Assembly: GCA_946619755.1 (NCBI GenBank)
Contig: CAMOMI010000001.1
Coordinates: 33,441 to 97,440 of the forward strand
Direction: 5' to 3'
Length of the DNA: 64,000 nucleotides
From: an uncultured Clostridia bacterium
GTDB taxonomy: Bacteria; Bacillota_I; Bacilli_A; RF39; UBA660
Shown: in pieces, positions 23,681 to 47,199 of the stretch
How the letters are laid out: each line of letters starts with the position of its first letter
Numbering within the stretch: position 1 is the first letter of the stretch
Made by a program: the position numbers and the translations under genes
The notes under the pieces: model-generated
What the model was told of the DNA's origin: nothing
What the model saw: the letters and a program-made list of their open reading frames with translations, nothing else
The model's database searches: none

Positions 23681-24031
23681 AATTATCTTATAAGCCACAT
23701 TCTGTACCTAAAAAAGGCGACAAACATTTATCTATAGCATAGCTATCCATCTCACAGATTCTTATTCTCCTAAGATAGTTCCCCTACCAAAATTTGGGTT
23801 TCTCACTTGTGGGGTTTACCGCGTTTCACTCTATTCATTTCTAAATAGCATCGTCACTGTGGCACTTTATACCCATCTATCCATAGCATAGCCTTAGAAT
23901 AGACAGATGCCGTAAGGCCGAAGCCTCCCATAGGTTATTTTTTCCCTAAGCGCAAACACTACTATCATCACAGATAGTGTGAGTGTGGACTTTCCTCTAA
24001 GTATTACTACTCAGCGTTTGTCTAGATAATT
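23681..24031 (-). ncRNA. rnpB: RNase P RNA, bacterial type B (Bacillus-type)
   Basis: The minus strand carries the conserved type-B boxes in order: AGAGGAAAGUCCAC (P4 5' strand), AAAGUGCCACAGUGACGA (P10.1/P11 region), GUGAAACGCGGUAAACCCCAC and GAGAAACCCAAAUUUUGGUAGG (P15 region), matching B. subtilis rnpB. Ends chosen from P1 pairing AAAUUAUCU / AGAUAAUUU. GC-rich island with no ORF. Confidence 0.85.
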
Positions 24032-36116: not shown

Positions 36117-36587
36117 TTAGCGTCCTCTTCTACTTTCTTTCTTTTCCTCATAATCATCAAAATAATAAACTTGTTTTCTTATTTCTTTTTCATATAATTT
36201 ATATCGTAAACTATCAACAATTACCTGTATCTTGCTAAGTGTTAAACTTTGATATGTATTTCCTAAATATTTAACATATTTATTAATAATTTGCATTCTT
36301 AACTTTTCTGCTTCCATTAAAGACCTTTTTATATCATCATCACTACCATCATCATCAGTATCAATTAATTTAAGTTGATTAAGCAAATATTCAATTTTCT
36401 TTTCAATTTTTTTTCGAATAATTTTTTCACTAATATCATCATTAACAAAAATAATTTGACTAACCCCAATTGCTCCTTCTTCTTTAACTTTAGGATTAAC
36501 TTTATAGCCATCTAATTTTTCAAGTTCTAAATATCTAGTTTCTCTTTTCTTTTTTGTTTTAGATACGTAATAACTCTTATCATTCAT
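36117..36587 (-). CDS. hypothetical charged protein translationally coupled downstream of trmD
   Basis: 156 aa Lys/Glu/Asp-rich, overlaps trmD by 8 nt. Confidence 0.45.
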   Translation of the reverse strand: MNDKSYYVSKTKKKRETRYLELEKLDGYKVNPKVKEEGAIGVSQIIFVNDDISEKIIRKKIEKKIEYLLNQLKLIDTDDDGSDDDIKRSLMEAEKLRMQIINKYVKYLGNTYQSLTLSKIQVIVDSLRYKLYEKEIRKQVYYFDDYEEKKESRRGR

Positions 36588-37257
36588 GACTATTTCCCCC
36601 TGTCAAATCACTTCTAACTTCATTTGTTCTTCTTATTCTTTCATCTTGTCTATATTTTTCTATATTCTTATGATGTCCTGATAATAATACTTCTGGTACT
36701 CTCATACCTCTAAACTCTTCAGGTCTTGTATAATTTGGATAATCCAAAAGACCATCATTAAAACTTTCACTATCTAAACTATTACTAGATATCACTCCGG
36801 GAATTAATCTTGTAATCGCATCAGTAATTGCCATTGCTGGTATCTCTCCACCTGTTAAAACATAATCGCCAATAGAAATTTCCATATCAACAATTGTTCT
36901 AATTCGTTCGTCAAAGCCCTCATAATGCCCACAAAGTAAAATAATATGTTTTTGTCGAGATAAATCTAAAGCCATTTCTTGCTTAAAAACCTTACCAGCT
37001 GGACTCATCATAATAACAATAGATTCATCAGTTTTAATGGCCTCAATAGCATTAAAAATAGGCTCACACATCAAAACCATACCAGCTCCGCCACCATAAG
37101 GATAGTCATCTACCCGATTATGTTTGTCAGTAGAATAATCCCTAAAATTATGTACTTGAATATCAACATAACCATCTTCTCTTGCTCTTTTAATAATTGA
37201 TGTTTCTAAAAAGCCATCAAACATTTCTGGAAACAATGTAAGAATATCTATCCTCAT
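36580..37257 (-). CDS. trmD: tRNA (guanine37-N1)-methyltransferase
   Basis: MRIDILTLFPEMFDGFL... and SPOUT knot region; rimM-trmD synteny. Confidence 0.9.
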   Translation of the reverse strand: MRIDILTLFPEMFDGFLETSIIKRAREDGYVDIQVHNFRDYSTDKHNRVDDYPYGGGAGMVLMCEPIFNAIEAIKTDESIVIMMSPAGKVFKQEMALDLSRQKHIILLCGHYEGFDERIRTIVDMEISIGDYVLTGGEIPAMAITDAITRLIPGVISSNSLDSESFNDGLLDYPNYTRPEEFRGMRVPEVLLSGHHKNIEKYRQDERIRRTNEVRSDLTGGNSHE

Positions 37258-37265
37258 AATACCTC

Positions 37266-37754
37266 CTAATAAAGACCAGCTATTTCTTTAACTCTAATTT
37301 CTTTTTTTTCTAAATTTATACTTACTATTATATCAAAATTATATGGAATTAAAACATCTTTTTCACCATGTACAAAAAGAATTTCATTTCCATTATGATT
37401 TTCAATTTTCCTAACTTTACCTAAATATCTATCATTAACATAGACATCTAATCCAATTATATCTTCATCCAAATATTCATTTTCACCAAGTTTAATATCA
37501 TCCTTATTAACAAAAACATAATCACCCTTATATTTCAATACTTGATTAATATCATTATATCCTTCCATTGTAATCATATCAAAGATTTTATGATGACGAT
37601 AACCGGTAATTTTTTCACATACTTTATCACGGCCAAGATATATTTTCATATCAGGAATAAAAACTTTATTCTTATACTTAAAATCTGATAATATTCTAAC
37701 TTCGCCTTTTAAACCATGAGTATTAACTAACTTACCAATCAAAACATACTTCAT
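37266..37754 (-). CDS. rimM: 16S rRNA processing protein RimM
   Basis: GKLVNTHGLKGEVRI N-terminal motif, PRC barrel C-terminus. Confidence 0.85.
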   Translation of the reverse strand: MKYVLIGKLVNTHGLKGEVRILSDFKYKNKVFIPDMKIYLGRDKVCEKITGYRHHKIFDMITMEGYNDINQVLKYKGDYVFVNKDDIKLGENEYLDEDIIGLDVYVNDRYLGKVRKIENHNGNEILFVHGEKDVLIPYNFDIIVSINLEKKEIRVKEIAGLY

Positions 37755-38476
37755 TTATTAAACACCTCATACATAATAATCGAAGCCGATACACCTGCAT
37801 TTAAGCTTTCACATTCTGGTCTCATACCAATATAGATATATTTCTGACAGAATTCTCTAACTTCGTTACTTATTCCTCTTCCTTCATTTCCAATTATAAA
37901 TATAACTTTAGTTGGAATATTTTCACTTTTTATATCAACGCCATCTTTTACATCTGTTCCATATATTACATAATCATCAACATCTTTAAGAAAAGAAGTC
38001 AAATGCTCTGTCATAATATTTACGTTAAATATCATTCCTTTTGTACTTCTAATTACTTTAGGATTATATAAATCAACACATTCCAAGCCAAGTACAATCG
38101 TATCAAATCCAAAAGCTACTGCACTTCTAATAATAGTTCCTAAATTTCCAGGATCTTGAATATCATCTAAAACAATAACTCTATTTCCCATTTCATGAGA
38201 AGTCATCTTAGAACATACTCCATAATATGGACTAAAACTAGCCATATCACTAATCTTTTTCATAACTTCATCACTAACATAACAAACAGGTATACCATCA
38301 TATATATTATCATAACCATCTAAAATATATATTTCTCTAAGTAAGCCATTCTTATAGGCTTCGTCGCACAAATCTTTTCCCTCAATAAAAAACAAATCAT
38401 TTAAATCACGATATTTCTTATCTTTTAATTTAACTAATTCCTTTATTTTATCATTACTAACAGATGTAATTAACAT
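37751..38476 (-). CDS. TrmH/SpoU-family RNA 2'-O-methyltransferase
   Basis: VLDDIQDPGNLGTIIRSAVAFGFDTIVL and IGNEGRGIS SPOUT motifs. Confidence 0.8.
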   Translation of the reverse strand: MLITSVSNDKIKELVKLKDKKYRDLNDLFFIEGKDLCDEAYKNGLLREIYILDGYDNIYDGIPVCYVSDEVMKKISDMASFSPYYGVCSKMTSHEMGNRVIVLDDIQDPGNLGTIIRSAVAFGFDTIVLGLECVDLYNPKVIRSTKGMIFNVNIMTEHLTSFLKDVDDYVIYGTDVKDGVDIKSENIPTKVIFIIGNEGRGISNEVREFCQKYIYIGMRPECESLNAGVSASIIMYEVFNK

Positions 38477-38609: not shown

Positions 38610-40295
38610 TTAACGACCGCCCATGCTTCCGCCGCCACCGAAGGATCCTCCTCCTCCGCCGCCGACAGAAAAGCCGCCACCGCCACCAGAGTAGTTTTCA
38701 GCTGCAGTTCTTGCTGCACTTGCTGCATGAACAGTTGATGTTGATATATTATTGATATAGACAAAAGTTCCATAATCAATATTATTTGCTTGCATTTCTT
38801 CAATAATTTCTGGGTATAAATTTTTAAATTGTTTAGCAACCTTATCAGCCATTCCAAAAAGATATGCAAACATCAAATATTCATCCCAAAGTTTTACTTC
38901 AATAGCCTCTTTATTCTTCATATCAGAAAACTCTTTTAAAAACAATTTAAGACCATATAATTCCTTACTATCATTATATATCATATCATCCATAACATTA
39001 ATTTTCTTACATTCTTCTTTTGTAGTACGACGATATATATGATGATTAGCCTTAAGTTCATCAATTTTAGTGTCGCCTATTCTCTTAAACAAACTCAAAA
39101 ACTTTTCATAATGCTTCTTAGCCCATTTTTCAAGTTCTTTTGACTCAAGTAAACCATCTTTACTAGCTTCATACATTATATCAAACAATTCTTTTTCAAG
39201 TGGCAAGTCAAACTGTGGATTTAAAGTTAAATTTATCACACTAGTTTCCTTATTAAATATTCCTGTTGTATCACTTGTAAAACTAATCTTTCCTTGTCTA
39301 ATCCATTTTAACAAAATAGCGCCAAAAATATTAGTCTCTTTGTAATCAAAATTATTTAAATTAATTAATGCATTGGCATAATAAATATCTTTTTTACAAG
39401 GTATATCTCTAAACATTGGAGTATTTTTCTTATCGATTGTCTTATTATCTTTATAACCATAACCATTCTTTATTGCAACAGAAATTGCTAACAAAATAAA
39501 ACCAACAGGTACAATAAATGTTAGTAATCCACCCAAGAAAGAAAGAATTTCTTGTAATTTAGTTTTTTTTGGTTGACCATAATTATAATCATATTCATAA
39601 GTATTATCTTGCGCTCTATTTAAAATGTCATCAAAATTGCTAAAATCACCATTATAATTATCAGTATTAAATGTTCCAACAGGGAACTTTGCAAGCAAAA
39701 CAACATAATCGTTATTTAAACTATACACATCACTATCAAGTTTTATTTTGCCACCTTCAACATATGCCAAATATTGTCCACCAAATCCCCATACATCTAA
39801 AGTATCAGGAAACTCATAAAAGCTACTTACTGTTACCGTAAAAGAATCAAGTGTCGCATTAGGTAATAACGTCTGATATAATACCTGTGCATCTTTCGTA
39901 TTAGTAATATAATTAGATAAAGTGTATTTTAATGTAAACGTATGTCTATCCATATCTCCTTTACCAAAACATAGTTCCATTCCTTCATCTACATAATTTA
40001 TTCCATAATAGCCACTTTTTTGACTTAGTGACTCATTAACATTCCAAGTTTTCTCCTTCATTAAAGAACCGTCCATTGATACTGTGTAGTTAGATATTTC
40101 TTGGTTACCTAAATTATATAATTGTTTATACCATTCACTACCACCTGATGCTTTCGCATCCCAGACTTCCGTAATATCTGCTGATCCATCTTTATTCAAA
40201 TAAATATCCATTTTAACATTATAGATATGATCTGCAAATACATATATTGGAGAAATAATAAATAATAAGATAAAAAATAATAATTTTCTTTTCAT
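38610..40295 (-). CDS. DUF2207-family membrane protein with Gly-rich C-terminal tail
   Basis: Signal peptide + extracellular domain, central TM (LLTFIVPVGFILLAISVAI), cytoplasmic domain ending GGGGGFSVGGGGGGSFGGGGSMGGR. Confidence 0.7.
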   Translation of the reverse strand: MKRKLLFFILLFIISPIYVFADHIYNVKMDIYLNKDGSADITEVWDAKASGGSEWYKQLYNLGNQEISNYTVSMDGSLMKEKTWNVNESLSQKSGYYGINYVDEGMELCFGKGDMDRHTFTLKYTLSNYITNTKDAQVLYQTLLPNATLDSFTVTVSSFYEFPDTLDVWGFGGQYLAYVEGGKIKLDSDVYSLNNDYVVLLAKFPVGTFNTDNYNGDFSNFDDILNRAQDNTYEYDYNYGQPKKTKLQEILSFLGGLLTFIVPVGFILLAISVAIKNGYGYKDNKTIDKKNTPMFRDIPCKKDIYYANALINLNNFDYKETNIFGAILLKWIRQGKISFTSDTTGIFNKETSVINLTLNPQFDLPLEKELFDIMYEASKDGLLESKELEKWAKKHYEKFLSLFKRIGDTKIDELKANHHIYRRTTKEECKKINVMDDMIYNDSKELYGLKLFLKEFSDMKNKEAIEVKLWDEYLMFAYLFGMADKVAKQFKNLYPEIIEEMQANNIDYGTFVYINNISTSTVHAASAARTAAENYSGGGGGFSVGGGGGGSFGGGGSMGGR

Positions 40296-41857: not shown

Positions 41858-41886
41858 AACCTGTCAATATGACAGGTTATTTTTTT
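41858..41886. terminator. bidirectional terminator between sspI (+) and murE (-)
   Basis: aacctgtc-atat-gacaggtt hairpin followed by T7; A-run upstream. Confidence 0.55.
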
Positions 41887-43340
41887 AATTCATCTAATAT
41901 TTCTCTAATTACTACACGTTCATCAAACGGATATCTTTTTCCTTTTATTTCCTTGTAATCCTCATGTCCTTTACCAATAAGCATAATAATATCCCCTTTT
42001 TTACCATTTTCAATTGCATATTTAATAGCTGCTTTTCTATCAGAAATAATTGTGTATTCACAATTTGTCTTTTTAATACCAACCAAGATATCCTTAGCAA
42101 TATCTTCAAACTCTTCATAACGATTATTATCTTCAGTTATGATACAATAGTCTGAATATTTTCCAGCCATTTCCCCCATTTCGTATCTTCTATCTCTACT
42201 TCTATTACCACCACAACCAAAGATTGTTACTATTCTACCAGGATCATACTCTTTAATCGTACTAAGAATGCTCTCAGTACTAACACCATTATGAGCATAA
42301 TCAATCAGTAATGTAAAATCATCCGATACATGAACCGGTTCTACTCTTCCCTTAACATGAAAATTCGCCAAAGCTTTTTTAATATATTTATCATCTATAC
42401 CAATTAATTTACATGTAAGAATAGCAGCCATTGCATTATAAGAAGTAAATTTACCAGGACTACTTATTTTAAAAGTATCTTTTACTAATCCATCGGTAGT
42501 AAGTTCAATCCCAATAAAGCCTTTTTCTCTAAGTAATTTTAAATTTGTTGCTCTTAAATCTGCTCTTTCATCATATCCATAAGTATTGATATTGGCATCA
42601 CCACCACTTACCATATCATAAAAGTGCTGATCATCTAAATTAAATATTCCATGATTACATTGATTAAATAATTTAGCTTTACTCTTAATATAATCTTCCA
42701 TATCAGGATGTTCGTTTGCTCCAATATGATCTTGTGTTAAATTTGTAAACACTCCATAATCAAATATAATATCATTTACCCTATCATACTTTAAAGCCTG
42801 ACTTGATACCTCCATCACCATAAAATTCATTTTCTTTTTAACCATTTCATCCATATACTTAATGGTTTCATATGATTCTGGAGTTGTATTTTTAGCTGGA
42901 TACATCTTATCGTCAATATATACCCCAGTAGTACCTATTAAACCACATTTATATCCTGCTTCTTCAAGAATTCGTTTAATCATAAAACTAGTTGTTGTCT
43001 TTCCTTTTGTACCAGTAATCGCTATTGTTTTAAGTTTACTTTGAGGATACCTAAACAATCTCAATGATAACTTAGATAAAATCTTTCTCGTGTTATCAAC
43101 CTTAATAACTGTAACATTTCCCGATACGTCAATATTTTTTGATACAAGTACTACTTTTGCGCCATTTTTTATGGCATCATCAATAAAATCATGGCCATCT
43201 ACTTCTGCCCCAATAATAGCTACAAATAAATCACCATTTTTAGCTTTTCTAGAGTCATAAACAATATCATTTACTATTTCATCCATATCCCCTTTTAAAA
43301 GGGTATAATCTATTTCTTTAAATAATTCATTAAGTTTCAT
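41877..43340 (-). CDS. murE: UDP-N-acetylmuramoyl-L-alanyl-D-glutamate--diamino-acid ligase
   Basis: Mur ligase P-loop GTKGKTTTSFMI, MurE-type C-terminus; specificity box reads EDNNRYE (cf. DNPR for meso-DAP enzymes); start ATG 43340 with GGTGA RBS. Confidence 0.85.
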   Translation of the reverse strand: MKLNELFKEIDYTLLKGDMDEIVNDIVYDSRKAKNGDLFVAIIGAEVDGHDFIDDAIKNGAKVVLVSKNIDVSGNVTVIKVDNTRKILSKLSLRLFRYPQSKLKTIAITGTKGKTTTSFMIKRILEEAGYKCGLIGTTGVYIDDKMYPAKNTTPESYETIKYMDEMVKKKMNFMVMEVSSQALKYDRVNDIIFDYGVFTNLTQDHIGANEHPDMEDYIKSKAKLFNQCNHGIFNLDDQHFYDMVSGGDANINTYGYDERADLRATNLKLLREKGFIGIELTTDGLVKDTFKISSPGKFTSYNAMAAILTCKLIGIDDKYIKKALANFHVKGRVEPVHVSDDFTLLIDYAHNGVSTESILSTIKEYDPGRIVTIFGCGGNRSRDRRYEMGEMAGKYSDYCIITEDNNRYEEFEDIAKDILVGIKKTNCEYTIISDRKAAIKYAIENGKKGDIIMLIGKGHEDYKEIKGKRYPFDERVVIREILDELKK

Positions 43341-43360
43341 ACTTATCACCTATATTAATA

Positions 43361-44284
43361 TTATGCTTCTTCTGGTATTTCTACCTCTACTCCTTCAGCT
43401 GTTAATTCATCTTTGAATTTATCTTTAAAAACTATTAACTCTTTTCTAATAACGTCAGGATATACTGCTTTTGTATTCTTTATTGCTTCATATATATGTT
43501 TAAATTTAACTTCCAAACTATTATCAAATAAAGCAGCCGAATAAGCTTGTCTAAGTAAATTCAACGAAATATCCGGATACCTTGAAGATATTTCATATAC
43601 TCGCTTATATTCACTTGTCATATTGACAATAAATTTACAAATATTTTCTTTTATAAAATCTGTATAATTAAGTTTAACACCCGTCTGATATTCAATCTTA
43701 GGTATTGTTCTCATAAGAATTTGTACACACATTTCTTGTGTTGGTTCAGCTATATCAATTCGTTCAAATCTTCTCACAAATGCTTTATCTCTAAGTACAT
43801 ATCTCTCATATTCATCTACCGTTGTTGCCCCAATCAACTTAACCGTTCCTCTTCCTAATCCTTCTTTAAACATATTTGCTAAATCCATTGGGCCATTTGA
43901 TACACTTGCTCCCATAAGCATATGAATTTCATCGATAAATACTATTATTTTATCCCTATTTTTTATTTCATTCACAAGTTGCATTACTTTATTTTCTCCA
44001 TCCGTTACCCCTAGTAATGATGGCGTACTTATCTTATACACTTTATATCCCTTTAAAGCATTCGGCATATCATTGATTTGCATACGATAAGCAAGGCCTT
44101 CAACAATAGCCGTCTTACCAATACCTGGTTTACCAACCAAACAAGCAGACTTTTCTGGATTAAGTAAAACCATTACTAATTCTTTAATCTCATTATCTCT
44201 AGCAATTGCTGGATTAGTAATATATTTTTCTGCCGTTAAATCTTCGCCATATTTTTCTAAAAAACTCTCATTATTGTTCATCAT
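43361..44284 (-). CDS. stand-alone Clp/Hsp100 D1-type AAA+ ATPase module (no N-domain, no D2, no ClpP loop)
   Basis: ARDNEIKELVMVLLNPEKSACLVGKPGIGKTAIVEGLAYRM (Walker A), IVFIDEIHMLMGAS (Walker B), KLIGATTVDEYERYVLRDKAFVRRFERIDIAEP (sensor/Arg-finger region): collinear with ClpA/ClpC/ClpB D1; only 307 aa. Confidence 0.7.
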   Translation of the reverse strand: MMNNNESFLEKYGEDLTAEKYITNPAIARDNEIKELVMVLLNPEKSACLVGKPGIGKTAIVEGLAYRMQINDMPNALKGYKVYKISTPSLLGVTDGENKVMQLVNEIKNRDKIIVFIDEIHMLMGASVSNGPMDLANMFKEGLGRGTVKLIGATTVDEYERYVLRDKAFVRRFERIDIAEPTQEMCVQILMRTIPKIEYQTGVKLNYTDFIKENICKFIVNMTSEYKRVYEISSRYPDISLNLLRQAYSAALFDNSLEVKFKHIYEAIKNTKAVYPDVIRKELIVFKDKFKDELTAEGVEVEIPEEA

Positions 44285-44289
44285 ATCAC

Positions 44290-44451
44290 CTATTTTCTAG
44301 TTAATAAAATAATAGCTAAAACACTACTAACCGTAATTATTAAAGACAATAAATAAAGAAAATTAACATATCCATAAGATACTTCCTTTTTTTTAAAACG
44401 ATCAAATGGTAATTCTAAATTTTCAAGTTCTACTGGTAATTTATCTCTCAT
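44290..44451 (-). CDS. unannotated 53-aa tail-anchored membrane ORF translationally coupled between ylxM and the AAA+ gene
   Basis: ATG overlaps ylxM TGA stop (ATGA), GAGGAG SD 5 nt upstream; MRDKLPVELENLELPFDRFKKKEVSYGYVNFLYLLSLIITVSSVLAIILLTRK; stop 5 nt before AAA start. Confidence 0.4.
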   Translation of the reverse strand: MRDKLPVELENLELPFDRFKKKEVSYGYVNFLYLLSLIITVSSVLAIILLTRK

Positions 44452-44741
44452 AATAACTCCTCTAATTCCTTTTTTATTTCTTTATTATCTATTTTTTCAA
44501 TTATCTTCTTTAATTTCATATCTTTTTCATATAACTTAAGCTTATCTTCATACTCATATAATTTTGCTTGAACGCTTTTAATACTTTTATGTACTGCATT
44601 TCGGCTTTTATCTTCATTTTCACTTATTTCTGATAATGAATAATTATCAAAATAATATTCCTCAAAATATTGTCTCTGAACATCGGTCAACAATTCACTA
44701 TAATAGTCATACAAAATAACTAAATATTCTTGCTTTTCCAT
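44448..44741 (-). CDS. ylxM: YlxM/UPF0122 SRP-operon HTH protein
   Basis: YDYYSELLTDVQRQYFEEYYFDNYSLSEISENEDKSRNAVHKSIKSVQAKLYEYEDKL matches B. subtilis YlxM; start ATG 44741 overlapping upstream stop (TAATG). Confidence 0.7.
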   Translation of the reverse strand: MEKQEYLVILYDYYSELLTDVQRQYFEEYYFDNYSLSEISENEDKSRNAVHKSIKSVQAKLYEYEDKLKLYEKDMKLKKIIEKIDNKEIKKELEELL

Positions 44742-44986
44742 TAACTTAACCTCAAATATGTATAGCATAATGAAGCAACTATTAAAAGTACTCCAAATAT
44801 AAACAATGTATACATTAATCCTTTTTTCTTATCACCTAAATAATAGCAAATACTAAATAAGAATAATGATGTCATAAGCATACAAGATGAAATAAATGCT
44901 CTATTATAAAAGATTGATAATCCTAAAGTAATTAATGCCACAAGTAAAACAACTATACTAAAAATCTTAATTGTTTTCTTATCCAT
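44741..44986 (-). CDS. small 3-TM membrane protein between ftsY and ylxM
   Basis: 81 aa, three hydrophobic helices; 9-nt gap after ftsY; stop overlaps ylxM start. Confidence 0.45.
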   Translation of the reverse strand: MDKKTIKIFSIVVLLVALITLGLSIFYNRAFISSCMLMTSLFLFSICYYLGDKKKGLMYTLFIFGVLLIVASLCYTYLRLS

Positions 44987-44995
44987 AATTCCTCC

Positions 44996-45976
44996 TTATA
45001 AATCTTTAAATAATCCATAAATATATTTTTCTATATCAAAGGCTTCAATTTGATCTGCTCTTTCTCCTAATCCAACAAACTTAACCGGAATATTTACTTC
45101 TTCCTTAATTGCTAAAACAATTCCTCCTTTAGCTGTTCCATCTAATTTAGTTAAAACAATACCCGTAATATCCGTTATTTCTTTAAATGATTTAGCCTGA
45201 CTAATTCCATTTTGACCTGTTGTTGCATCAATTACTAAAAGTGTTTCATGTGGCGCATCAGGAATAATTTTTTTTATAACTCTATTTATTTTTGATAACT
45301 CTTCCATCAAATTTGTCTTATTCTGAAGTCTGCCTGCTGTATCTACCAATACCAGATCATACTTTTCTTTTGTTGCCATTTCCAAAGCATCATAGATAAC
45401 TGAAGATGGATCTTTAGACTCGCCACTGACAACCAACGTATCAGTTTTTTTGCCCCATTCTTCAAGTTGTTCTATTGCTCCAGCTCTAAAAGTATCACCA
45501 GCCACAAGCATTACTTTCTTACCCTTGTTCTTATAAATTGTTGCTAATTTCCCTATTGTAGTAGTCTTTCCAACACCATTGACACCAACAAACAACACAA
45601 CCGTAGGGCCATTACTTGCTATATGAATTTTACTATCTATTATATTATTACCAACATACATTATCAAAAGTTCATCGACAATAATTTCTTTTAATACACT
45701 GCTATCTGTTATCTTTTCATTCTTAACTCTATGTCTAAGTCTATCGACAAAATTCATAACAGTATTAATTCCAATATCAGCCATAATTAAAATATTTTCT
45801 AATTCTTCAAAATAATCTTCCGATATATTTTTATATTTCTTAGATAAATTACTTAATTGACTAACAAACTCTTCACGACTTTTCTTTAGTCCTTCATCAT
45901 AGTTTTTTACTTCTTCTTTTACTTCTTTTGTTGCCTTAGCACCAAAAACATTTTTAATCCTATCAAATAACCCCAT
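44996..45976 (-). CDS. ftsY: signal recognition particle receptor FtsY
   Basis: NG domain: GVNGVGKTTTIGKLA (G1), DTAGR (G3), TKLDG (G4). Confidence 0.9.
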   Translation of the reverse strand: MGLFDRIKNVFGAKATKEVKEEVKNYDEGLKKSREEFVSQLSNLSKKYKNISEDYFEELENILIMADIGINTVMNFVDRLRHRVKNEKITDSSVLKEIIVDELLIMYVGNNIIDSKIHIASNGPTVVLFVGVNGVGKTTTIGKLATIYKNKGKKVMLVAGDTFRAGAIEQLEEWGKKTDTLVVSGESKDPSSVIYDALEMATKEKYDLVLVDTAGRLQNKTNLMEELSKINRVIKKIIPDAPHETLLVIDATTGQNGISQAKSFKEITDITGIVLTKLDGTAKGGIVLAIKEEVNIPVKFVGLGERADQIEAFDIEKYIYGLFKDL

Positions 45977-45978
45977 AC

Positions 45979-47070
45979 CTAACCTCCATATTTATCTAAT
46001 ATATAATCACTTAATACTTCATAATTATTTTCAATATTACCAAGTACAATCTGTTCTTCAACATCTTTAATGATGTTCTTAATGTAATTACCAGGCTTCT
46101 TATTAAGTATATTAGCAACATCCATACCTTTTATCTTAATATCCTTTGATGAAGTTATTGGTAACTTCTTATATATATTACTTATCTTTTTATAACTAAT
46201 ACCTTTAATACTACCAACTACTTGTGATACATATAATCCATATTGATATACCGATAAACTAGTTATTTCTAAATTAAGCATATTTCTAATTTTATTTATA
46301 TTATCTTTTTCTATTTTCGAAAAAGGATAATCTAAATCAAATTCAATCTGGCTCCATAAACCAATAATATCATCACATAAAATAACTTTATCTAATTTTT
46401 TTATTCCTAAATATTTATCGAGACCTAAATCAATTATAAGCTTAATACCTTTAGCTTTATTCTTACTAGCAAATATCTTATCTAGTTCTTCTTTTTTTCT
46501 TGAATAAGATAAATATTTAAGTAATGAAGCATATTTTTTAATATAATACTTCGTTTTATCATCAATATCAAAATCAAGATAAGTTGCAAACCTAATTGCT
46601 CTAAGTATTCTAAGAGAATCTTCTTTCAATCTATACCTTGGATTACCTACTGTTCTAATGATTCTTTTATCTAAATCTTCTTTAGCGTTTAATAAATCAA
46701 GATAGTTTCCATTTTTATCAATACACATTGTATTAATTGTAAAATCTCTTCTAAGCAAATCTTTTTTTAATTCTCTAACATATTTAATCTTGATAGGTTT
46801 ACGATTTTTTTCATATTTGATATCTTTTCTATAAGTTGTTACATCAAACAAAACATTCTTAAATATTACTCTAACTGAACCATATTTAATATCATTTATA
46901 CCATCAGTATCAAATATTTCCATTATTTCTTTTGGCTTTGCATTTGTACATATATCGATATCATTCGTTTCTATCCCTAACATCTTGTCTCTCGGATATC
47001 CACCAACAATATATGCCTCATATCCATTTTTAGCAAACACATCAAGTACTAAGATAGCTTTATTATACAT
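45979..47070 (-). CDS. cca: CCA-adding tRNA nucleotidyltransferase
   Basis: Pol-beta head GGYPRDKMLG ... DIDI, followed by poly(A) polymerase-family body; start ATG 47070 after GGTGGGTGG. Confidence 0.8.
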   Translation of the reverse strand: MYNKAILVLDVFAKNGYEAYIVGGYPRDKMLGIETNDIDICTNAKPKEIMEIFDTDGINDIKYGSVRVIFKNVLFDVTTYRKDIKYEKNRKPIKIKYVRELKKDLLRRDFTINTMCIDKNGNYLDLLNAKEDLDKRIIRTVGNPRYRLKEDSLRILRAIRFATYLDFDIDDKTKYYIKKYASLLKYLSYSRKKEELDKIFASKNKAKGIKLIIDLGLDKYLGIKKLDKVILCDDIIGLWSQIEFDLDYPFSKIEKDNINKIRNMLNLEITSLSVYQYGLYVSQVVGSIKGISYKKISNIYKKLPITSSKDIKIKGMDVANILNKKPGNYIKNIIKDVEEQIVLGNIENNYEVLSDYILDKYGG

Positions 47071-47199
47071 CGAACCACCCACCATAATTATATCATATTA
47101 ATTACTTTTTTAATACTTTTATTCCATCTCTTTACATTATTATTTTTCTATGTATTTTTTCCATTTTTTAGTTAATACTACACTTGAAAGGATGATTAT

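Follow-up and report, generated by a model that had tools for sequence, protein, structure and literature searches.

What stands in the place of ffh when this gene is missing behind ylxM, and does the protein found there take over its role? The question is raised by a stretch of DNA from an uncultured Clostridia bacterium (contig CAMOMI010000001.1), 64 kb long with 27% GC and called the window in the following. Here, ftsY, the gene for the receptor of the signal recognition particle (SRP), and ylxM are followed on the minus strand by a gene for a 307-amino-acid (aa) AAA+ ATPase, with genes for two small membrane proteins of 81 and 53 aa in between. A first-pass annotation made from the sequence presented this arrangement as an SRP operon in which a minimal Hsp100 unfoldase replaces ffh. 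The textbook forms of Hsp100/Clp proteins are two-ring machines (D1 plus D2) or single rings of the D2 type. The 307-aa protein fits neither description: it consists solely of a complete Clp/Hsp100 D1 module, and it represents an unannotated architectural variant of Clp/Hsp100 within an uncharacterised D1-only family of uncultured low-GC Bacilli.

The assignment to D1 is based on profile searches, sequence comparison with proteins of known structure and a predicted fold, which agree with each other and with the D1-only homology to ClpA, ClpB and ClpC first proposed for the protein. Pfam reports a generic AAA domain alone (PF00004, residues 48-173, 53.1 bits against a cut-off of 21.2); the lid does not reach the threshold of AAA_lid_9. 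Among the NCBIfam profiles, residues 4-210 align to positions 163-375 of 734 in ClpA (E 4e-50), and further alignments are obtained with positions 152-362 of 853 in ClpB and with ClpV/TssH; the equivalog cut-offs are unmet in each case (171 vs 993 bits for ClpA, 163 vs 1232 for ClpB and 152 vs 885 for TssH). A phmmer search of PDB sequences retrieves the D1 domains of ClpB, Hsp104 and ClpC at E-values of about 1e-40. The AlphaFold2 model, generated from a 60-sequence family alignment, reaches a predicted local distance difference test score (pLDDT) of 88.3 and a predicted template-modelling score of 0.86, and Foldseek matches it to ClpC (7abr_A, E 2e-19, TM-score 0.78, 293 columns). Across the D1 domains of ClpC, ClpB and ClpA, 293-301 columns of the 307-residue model superpose, lid included, with TM-scores of 0.72-0.78 at 28-32% identity.

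Both ends of the protein coincide with domain boundaries. The N-terminus is the canonical D1 boundary ('LEKYGEDLT...NPAI.RD.EI'), whose 'LEKYGEDLT' aligns with ClpB at residue ~160, and the C-terminus at residue 307 is the end of the helical D1 lid, which carries no M-domain insertion. Nothing in the 307-aa sequence matches AAA_2 or ClpB_D2-small in Pfam; in contrast, both are matched by P0154, a true two-ring homolog (P-numbers denote family representatives, and L-numbers such as L001 the comparison loci). Neither a Clp N-domain (Clp_N) nor a coiled-coil M-domain was found in the protein, and the [ILV]G[FL] tripeptide of the ClpP-docking loop is absent from it, this loop residing in the D2 module that is lacking here. 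The first-pass annotation had listed the N-domain, middle domain, D2 and ClpP loop as missing, and profiles, alignments and fold match bear this out. The 64-kb window holds no D2-like sequence and no full-length clp gene. In comparison with the class-I Clp/Hsp100 proteins ClpC, ClpB/Hsp104 and ClpA, the ATPase therefore shares the D1 fold, the N-terminal boundary motif, Walker A and B, the sensor-1 threonine, the double arginine finger and the lid, whereas it is devoid of their N-domain, D2, pore-1 K-Y-R-G motif and, with respect to ClpB and ClpC, M-domain.

Residue conservation scored in the 60-sequence family alignment predicts a catalytically competent D1 module, as the residues for ATP binding and hydrolysis are invariant (Table 1), including the sensor-1 residues T154 and T155 in all 60 members. 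The Walker A (GKPGIGKTA, residues 51-59), Walker B (FIDEIH, 116-121) and RRF (171-173) sequences were recognised early on; of these, RRF had been labelled a sensor region and is in fact the arginine-finger motif. Because the arginine fingers are retained, a ring-type, ATP-hydrolysing oligomer is implied, a prediction from motifs that also covers the activity of the ring. The pore is a different matter. Clp rings grip and thread polypeptides by means of the tyrosine motif in their pore-1 loop, and the ClpB segment 'AGAKYRGEFE' aligns with 'GVT----DGEN' in the ATPase. This deletion is common to the whole clade around the window protein and to the nearest tier of relatives (53-59% identity in the alignment; 56-61% for the tier). 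In the distant tier, whose identity is 33-41% in the alignment and 36-45% by HMMER, K-Y/F-R/V-G or a hydrophobic counterpart persists in most members. Pore-2 varies in sequence, and its region is modelled with low confidence (pLDDT below 50 at residues 127-132). The loss of the pore-1 tyrosine motif, overlooked in the first-pass annotation, argues against a threading unfoldase and makes the name 'unfoldase' doubtful; a single D1 ring of this kind is unlikely to act as a processive one.

The protein is by no means an isolated case. A word-indexed search detected at least 120 clusters of 300-311 aa with 83-100% identity, many of them on long contigs and one of the clusters named just 'AAA family ATPase [Bacilli bacterium]'. 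Scanning the GTDB species genomes added 19 species represented by metagenome-assembled genomes (MAGs), namely uncultured gut Bacilli from human, goat, roe deer and rabbit together with 'Clostridium sp. CAG:914', in which proteins of 64-87% identity are encoded at the same locus. Within these loci, conservation is higher for the AAA protein than for MurE or the CCA enzyme (72% as against 60% and 59% in L014). The family of D1-only proteins without a pore-1 motif is abundant in gut metagenomes and strongly conserved, with its predicted catalytic residues intact. In the literature searched, no paper was found that describes a natural D1-only Clp or an AAA gene at the ftsY-ylxM locus, and a published census of Clp proteins left out shorter sequences, regarding them as likely fragments (PMC10149685).

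An exhaustive representative search returned 17,995 hits, mostly true two-ring Clp proteins, and the wider family is described here from the top 150. Among these best 150 of the 17,995 matches, single-module proteins dominate and form two groups, and the names they bear in their sources are unspecific or assigned automatically ('AAA family ATPase' or 'ClpA'). The first group, at 56-61% identity, carries long disordered extensions rich in asparagine and glutamine (N/Q) or in acidic residues, either N- or C-terminal, without a second Pfam domain. Representatives P0121-P0146 (e.g. L023:8001-10490 and L031:8001-10523) combine the D1 module lacking the pore loop with 150-700 low-complexity residues at either end. 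An origin of the 800-1000-aa homologs by read-through or gene fusion was considered and rejected, as according to Pfam they contain neither a MurE nor an FtsY domain, and their additional sequence is low-complexity, N/Q-rich or acidic. The second group, at 36-45% identity by HMMER, comprises proteins of about 430-590 aa (e.g. P0158 and P0168) as well as the 313-aa P0170. Like the ATPase of the window, these longer relatives consist of a single D1 module with lid, and HMMER matches cover most of the query; they differ in their mostly aromatic or hydrophobic pore-1, their gene neighbourhoods and an N-terminal domain of ~200 aa. This domain is present in most of the group (P0158, P0168, P0159, P0166 and others; consensus 'MDY..F....P.ETK..I..AI.IY...K...DK.C.SLFLA.L'), and profile searches against Pfam and PDB sequences for a degenerate Clp N-domain gave no match. 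Two fusions were set aside as chimeric: P0149 (L034:100-996), which had been considered as evidence for membrane association and in which, on a contig of 4.4 kb, a LiaF-type transmembrane region is fused to an AAA module lacking both of its ends, and P0160, in which the AAA module is joined to part of an ABC-ATPase. Gene rearrangement, pseudogene formation or an assembly artefact is the probable origin of the two. A role as a defence system was likewise rejected, since PADLOC yields weak matches to generic AAA proteins (IetA, TRIP13) at E 1e-7 or weaker.

Turning to the second part of the question, ffh is absent from the slot after ylxM, as the first-pass annotation had noticed, and from the entire window. 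Two probes were used, the NG domain of the window's own FtsY and an Escherichia coli Ffh sequence (for probe use only), and both readily pick up FtsY at about 34% identity, making the test a sensitive one. The sequence searched comprised the 64-kb window, 10 kb past its left edge and, in the 19 other MAG species, 10 kb on each side of the AAA gene, and neither a second SRP-type GTPase nor ffh was detected in it; with the Ffh probe, FtsY was the sole match in the window and 33 loci. No SRP RNA was found in the window either, where the Rfam scan at gathering thresholds gave class B RNase P RNA alone. The 307-aa protein itself has no homology to Ffh, being an AAA+ fold and not an SRP54-type GTPase. 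The GTPase motifs of FtsY are all intact (GVNGVGKTT, DTFRAGA, DTAGR, TKLD, DATTGQN and GLGE, the heterodimer interface included), and with 67-87% identity across the 19 MAG species FtsY shows the highest conservation of all proteins of the locus. YlxM, which is conserved as well, scores 82.8 bits for NF045758 (cut-off 80) and 84.8 bits for PF04297 (cut-off 22.7, E 6e-24). According to PMC8546722, which cites Williams et al. (2014), YlxM binds Ffh and SRP RNA, not FtsY. Since the FtsY motifs are intact and a partner of Ffh and SRP RNA is conserved, a move of ffh to another place in the genome is the simplest explanation. The earlier statement that ffh is replaced applies to the position, which the AAA gene occupies, and is not supported for the function; an SRP system without ffh is not what was found here and should not be reported as such.

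The canonical Firmicute order is ftsY / ylxM-ffh-rpsP-rimM-trmD-rplS, of which the window shares the adjacency of ftsY and ylxM as well as rimM-trmD, located about 6 kb downstream on the same strand, whereas ffh and rpsP are missing from the region. The interval from ylxM to rimM is occupied by the 53-aa and AAA genes, murE and lemA as well as sspI-like, ygjP-like, DUF2207 and SpoU-methylase genes. The ancestral ribosomal/SRP cluster ylxM-ffh-rpsP-rimM-trmD is broken up in this lineage. With regard to rimM and trmD (36580-38476, minus strand), they are preceded by the gene for the SpoU-type rRNA/tRNA methylase instead of ffh-rpsP-KH, and trmD is followed by two unannotated open reading frames (ORFs) of about 155 aa, with no direct rplS.

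The ATPase gene is part of a run of same-strand ORFs at 41.9-47.1 kb with the order cca-ftsY-81aa-ylxM-53aa-AAA-murE. All ORFs of the first-pass annotation lie at the positions it gave, with overlaps or gaps of at most 20 nucleotides (nt). Its packing from ftsY to murE holds, although the unit does not start with ftsY, as cca precedes it by 2 nt and raises the number of genes to seven. The gap between ftsY and the 81-aa ORF measures 9 nt, the stop codon of the latter overlaps the start of ylxM by 1 nt if the ylxM ATG at 44741 is used, and murE begins 11 nt (GTG) or 20 nt (ATG) after the AAA gene; the two remaining junctions are given in Table 1. A Shine-Dalgarno sequence precedes every gene of the unit. 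In the case of cca, the ORF opens at 47085 (368 aa), the start supported by a Shine-Dalgarno sequence is M6 and the gene call in L001 has 363 aa; the 97-aa form of YlxM is likewise found in the L001 gene call. Upstream of cca, the extended -10-like element TGATATAAT represents a candidate promoter, to be read against the finding that a promoter consensus scan of this AT-rich window gave 47 sites where 48 were expected from shuffled sequence, i.e. no excess. The sole convincing hairpin with T-run in the terminator scan directly follows murE and reads AACCTGTCATATTGACAGGTTTTTAAC on the minus strand. Given the short junctions, the -10-like element before cca and the terminator hairpin after murE, the seven genes likely form a single transcription unit, whose boundaries are predicted, and the single transcript proposed before is plausible from the spacing. 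In content, it is a mixed housekeeping unit with lineage-specific gene order and not a dedicated SRP operon.

Table 1. Positions of the genes, sequence motifs and candidate transcription signals discussed in the text (coordinates refer to the window).
Feature	Position	Strand	Evidence or remark
Extended -10-like element, candidate promoter upstream of cca	47087..47095	-	pattern match only
cca, CCA tRNA nucleotidyltransferase, first gene of the unit	45979..47070	-	NF009814 (E 8e-84) and PF01743
ftsY, SRP receptor	44996..45976	-	TIGR00064, 357 bits (cut-off 261)
81-aa micro-protein with three transmembrane segments	44741..44986	-	ORF and strong Shine-Dalgarno sequence
ylxM, 97 aa from Shine-Dalgarno-supported ATG at 44741	44448..44741	-	ORF reaches 44768; start inferred
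53-aa tail-anchored micro-protein (predicted topology)	44290..44451	-	ATGA overlap with ylxM; 5 nt to the AAA gene
307-aa stand-alone Clp/Hsp100 D1-type AAA+ ATPase, large and lid subdomains	43361..44284	-	profiles, PDB phmmer, AlphaFold2, Foldseek
Walker A, G51-T58, GKPGIGKT	44111..44134	-	G51, G56 and K57 invariant
Pore-1 loop position, L91-N98, LGVTDGEN	43991..44014	-	4-residue deletion, no aromatic residue
Walker B, F116-H121, FIDEIH	43922..43939	-	D118, E119 and H121 invariant
Arginine fingers, R171-R172	43769..43774	-	R172 invariant, R171 in at least 90%; align with 'ERRF' of ClpB D1
murE, last gene of the unit	41877..43349	-	NF001126, 499 bits (cut-off 373)
Palindromic hairpin, T-runs on either strand; candidate for a bidirectional terminator separating murE from the convergent sspI-like gene	41858..41878	.	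terminator scan

The two micro-proteins encoded within the unit have no match to a curated family in Pfam or NCBIfam, the 81-aa protein giving a weak MerC match below the cut-off. Orthologs of the 53-aa ORF (52-64 aa) are present in 15 of 17 loci, always immediately upstream of the ATPase gene and separated from it by about 10 nt or less, in species spanning 64-100% identity. The alignment of the 15 orthologs reveals an N-terminal 'LPV.(I/L)EN.ELP' peptide, a charged linker, a G-Y/F motif, a C-terminal transmembrane helix and a basic end. With its single hydrophobic stretch of about 20 residues at the C-terminus, the protein is predicted to be tail-anchored. Pairwise codon differences among the orthologs amount to 0.48 at the first, 0.35 at the second and 0.54 at the third codon position, as would be expected in this order of a coding sequence. 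The 81-aa ORF with three transmembrane segments is orthologous in 12 of the 17 loci and again shows coding order in its substitutions (position 2 < 1 < 3). Its orthologs in L015:7452-7994, L016:9090-9491, L017:8940-9491 and L018:9199-9687 are extended at the N-terminus by 50-100 residues that are rich in lysine and probably disordered. Elsewhere the slot is taken by an unrelated 121-aa lipoprotein-like ORF (L004) or is empty (four loci).

For the 53-aa protein, a pattern emerges across the family: the naked 300-aa ATPase co-occurs with this gene, and the nearest relatives without the gene carry the long disordered extensions. On this basis, it is proposed that the 53-aa protein serves as a membrane tether or client of the ATPase. 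In the account favoured here, which we hold tentatively as a whole, the ATPase would assemble into an ATP-hydrolysing ring that acts as a non-threading remodelling or switch ATPase and not as an unfoldase. In the clade, the 53-aa tail-anchored protein, whose conserved N-terminal peptide would constitute either the docking element or the client, would recruit this ring to the membrane on its cytoplasmic side, and ffh would have moved elsewhere with the ATPase being no substitute for it. Several points weigh against this account. The start codon of the 53-aa gene overlaps ylxM, and its product could therefore belong functionally with YlxM or FtsY; L003 and L018, two of the 17 loci, keep the ATPase without the 53-aa gene. 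Transmembrane-like segments occur in 5 of the 150 family representatives, and the sole apparent transmembrane fusion looks chimeric, so that membrane association is not a family-wide trait. Moreover, the oligomeric state and activity of the ATPase are predicted from motifs, the assignment of the 53-aa protein as tether or client is itself putative, and a ring without the pore-1 tyrosine could engage its substrates through other residues.

Some of these points lend themselves to another explanation, according to which the ATPase is a soluble cytosolic enzyme that, for example, regulates full-length Clp ATPases, forms hetero-oligomers with them or remodels a non-membrane complex, with the 53-aa and 81-aa proteins as independent operon passengers or partners of FtsY and YlxM. 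This is somewhat unlikely and deserves to be taken seriously. Relatives at 40-60% identity have neither an adjacent small transmembrane gene nor a transmembrane segment and are located in unrelated neighbourhoods of cytosolic function; the retention of the ATPase in L003 and L018 and the translational coupling of the 53-aa ORF to ylxM through the ATGA overlap point in the same direction. However, the 53-aa gene lies directly upstream of the ATPase gene in 15 of 17 species, the naked form is paired with the 53-aa gene and long extensions with its absence, and the window offers no full-length clp gene as a partner.

The first-pass annotation had suggested that the ATPase and the micro-proteins work with FtsY and YlxM in SRP-dependent targeting or extraction of membrane proteins, which we regard as improbable. 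In its favour, the order ftsY-(81aa)-ylxM-(53aa)-AAA is tightly coupled and conserved in all 17 clade loci long enough to display it, and the D1-only gene of the distant member P0158 (L025:270-2779) directly follows rplS and the gene for signal peptidase I (lepB). Yet the order of the genes for the M50 protease, Hsp20, CCA enzyme and MurE is equally conserved in the clade loci, and because gene order is maintained over the whole locus in the same genomes, synteny tracks relatedness and not necessarily function. The unit itself includes cca and murE, the latter following the AAA gene in L001-L012, L014 and L021, not in L013 or L015-L020. Outside the clade, at 40-60% identity, four of five sampled lineages have no SRP or secretion neighbour: the AAA gene is placed between a DUF285 protein gene and infC-rpmI (P0122), with genes of unknown function and a surface-protein gene (P0168), between mutS-ldh and nusB-xseA (P0170) and between a Mbeg1-like gene and catalase-cotJB (P0130). 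In addition, extraction by threading would require the pore-1 loop that is absent. The wiring into an SRP operon claimed for the locus is accordingly weak. Two observations on these neighbourhoods may be added. The site of P0158 corresponds to the distal end of the classical ffh-rpsP-rimM-trmD-rplS region and is the sole secretion-related context among the five samples from outside the clade. In L013, the AAA gene is separated from the orthologous murE by a second Mur-ligase paralog (L013:10928-12343), which has 32% identity to MurE, together with some 4 kb of further genes.

Slightly less probable still is a conventional hexameric unfoldase or disaggregase that threads its clients through a non-canonical pore. 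The complete D1 fold with intact ATPase and arginine-finger residues would suit such a machine, and the K-Y/F-R/V-G loop kept by distant D1-only relatives makes ancestral threading probable. Against this, the four-residue deletion has stripped the motif from the clade and the 56-61% tier without exception, pore-2 is variable and modelled at low confidence, and there is no D2 ring, the main motor in ClpA and ClpB (PMC8666677). Finally, the idea that the ATPase is a fragment of a full-length clp gene left by frameshift, assembly error or decay, which could appeal to its covering one module of a normally two-module protein, is refuted by the comparative data and has practically no probability left: the ~300-aa form recurs as a family in more than 100 clusters and in 19 MAG species from independent assemblies, its ends fall on clean domain boundaries ('LEKYGEDLT' start and complete lid), murE begins within 11-20 nt, D2-like sequence was not found in the window and conservation is strong.

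Two known AAA+ systems offer points of comparison. Torsins are single-ring AAA+ proteins derived from Clp/Hsp100 that lack a canonical aromatic pore loop and operate with a single-pass membrane partner, LAP1 or LULL1; they are eukaryotic D2-type modules of the endoplasmic reticulum lumen and have no arginine finger of their own, which is supplied by the cofactor. They may serve as an analogy for a possible pairing of the ATPase with the 53-aa protein, with the difference that the ATPase is of the D1 type and keeps its arginine fingers. Msp1/ATAD1 is a membrane-associated single-ring AAA+ protein tied to tail-anchored proteins, which threads its clients and has its own N-terminal transmembrane anchor and aromatic pore loops; the ATPase has neither a transmembrane anchor of this kind nor aromatic pore loops. 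The function envisaged in the first-pass annotation resembles that of Msp1/ATAD1. Taken further by analogy, D1-only Clp proteins might form an unrecognised third class of Hsp100-derived machines with a single ring of the D1 type, in which the clade ring and the 53-aa protein would act like a torsin with its cofactor or like Msp1, as a membrane-bound ATPase for envelope or membrane-protein biogenesis alongside FtsY and YlxM, a speculation with little probability at present. The pairing of the ATPase with the 53-aa protein represents a concrete, testable hypothesis. As a minimal natural D1 system, the family would reveal to AAA+ researchers what a D1 ring can do alone, and the D1-only ATPase is of moderate interest to specialists in this field.

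Several other features of the window and its surroundings can be mentioned. The RNase P RNA is located at 23686-24029 on the minus strand, is of the bacterial class B and full length (282 bits) and fits an origin from low-GC Firmicutes/Bacilli. On the plus strand, convergent with murE, a 71-aa ORF at 41641-41856 matches small acid-soluble spore protein I (PF14098, L001 gene table), and genes for SpoIIM, a SpoIVB-type peptidase and CotJB are found in related loci; because of this combination, the uncultured Bacilli carrying the locus may form spores. Just left of the window on the same scaffold, a protein of 1901 aa for which no Pfam match is recorded (L032:11187-16892) is followed by two unannotated genes and then by ATP synthase genes. 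The DUF2207 membrane protein encoded at 38610-40295 on the minus strand, after lemA and the gene for the YgjP-like metallopeptidase on the same strand, ends in a glycine-rich tail (GGGGGFSVGGGGGGSFGGGGSMGGR).

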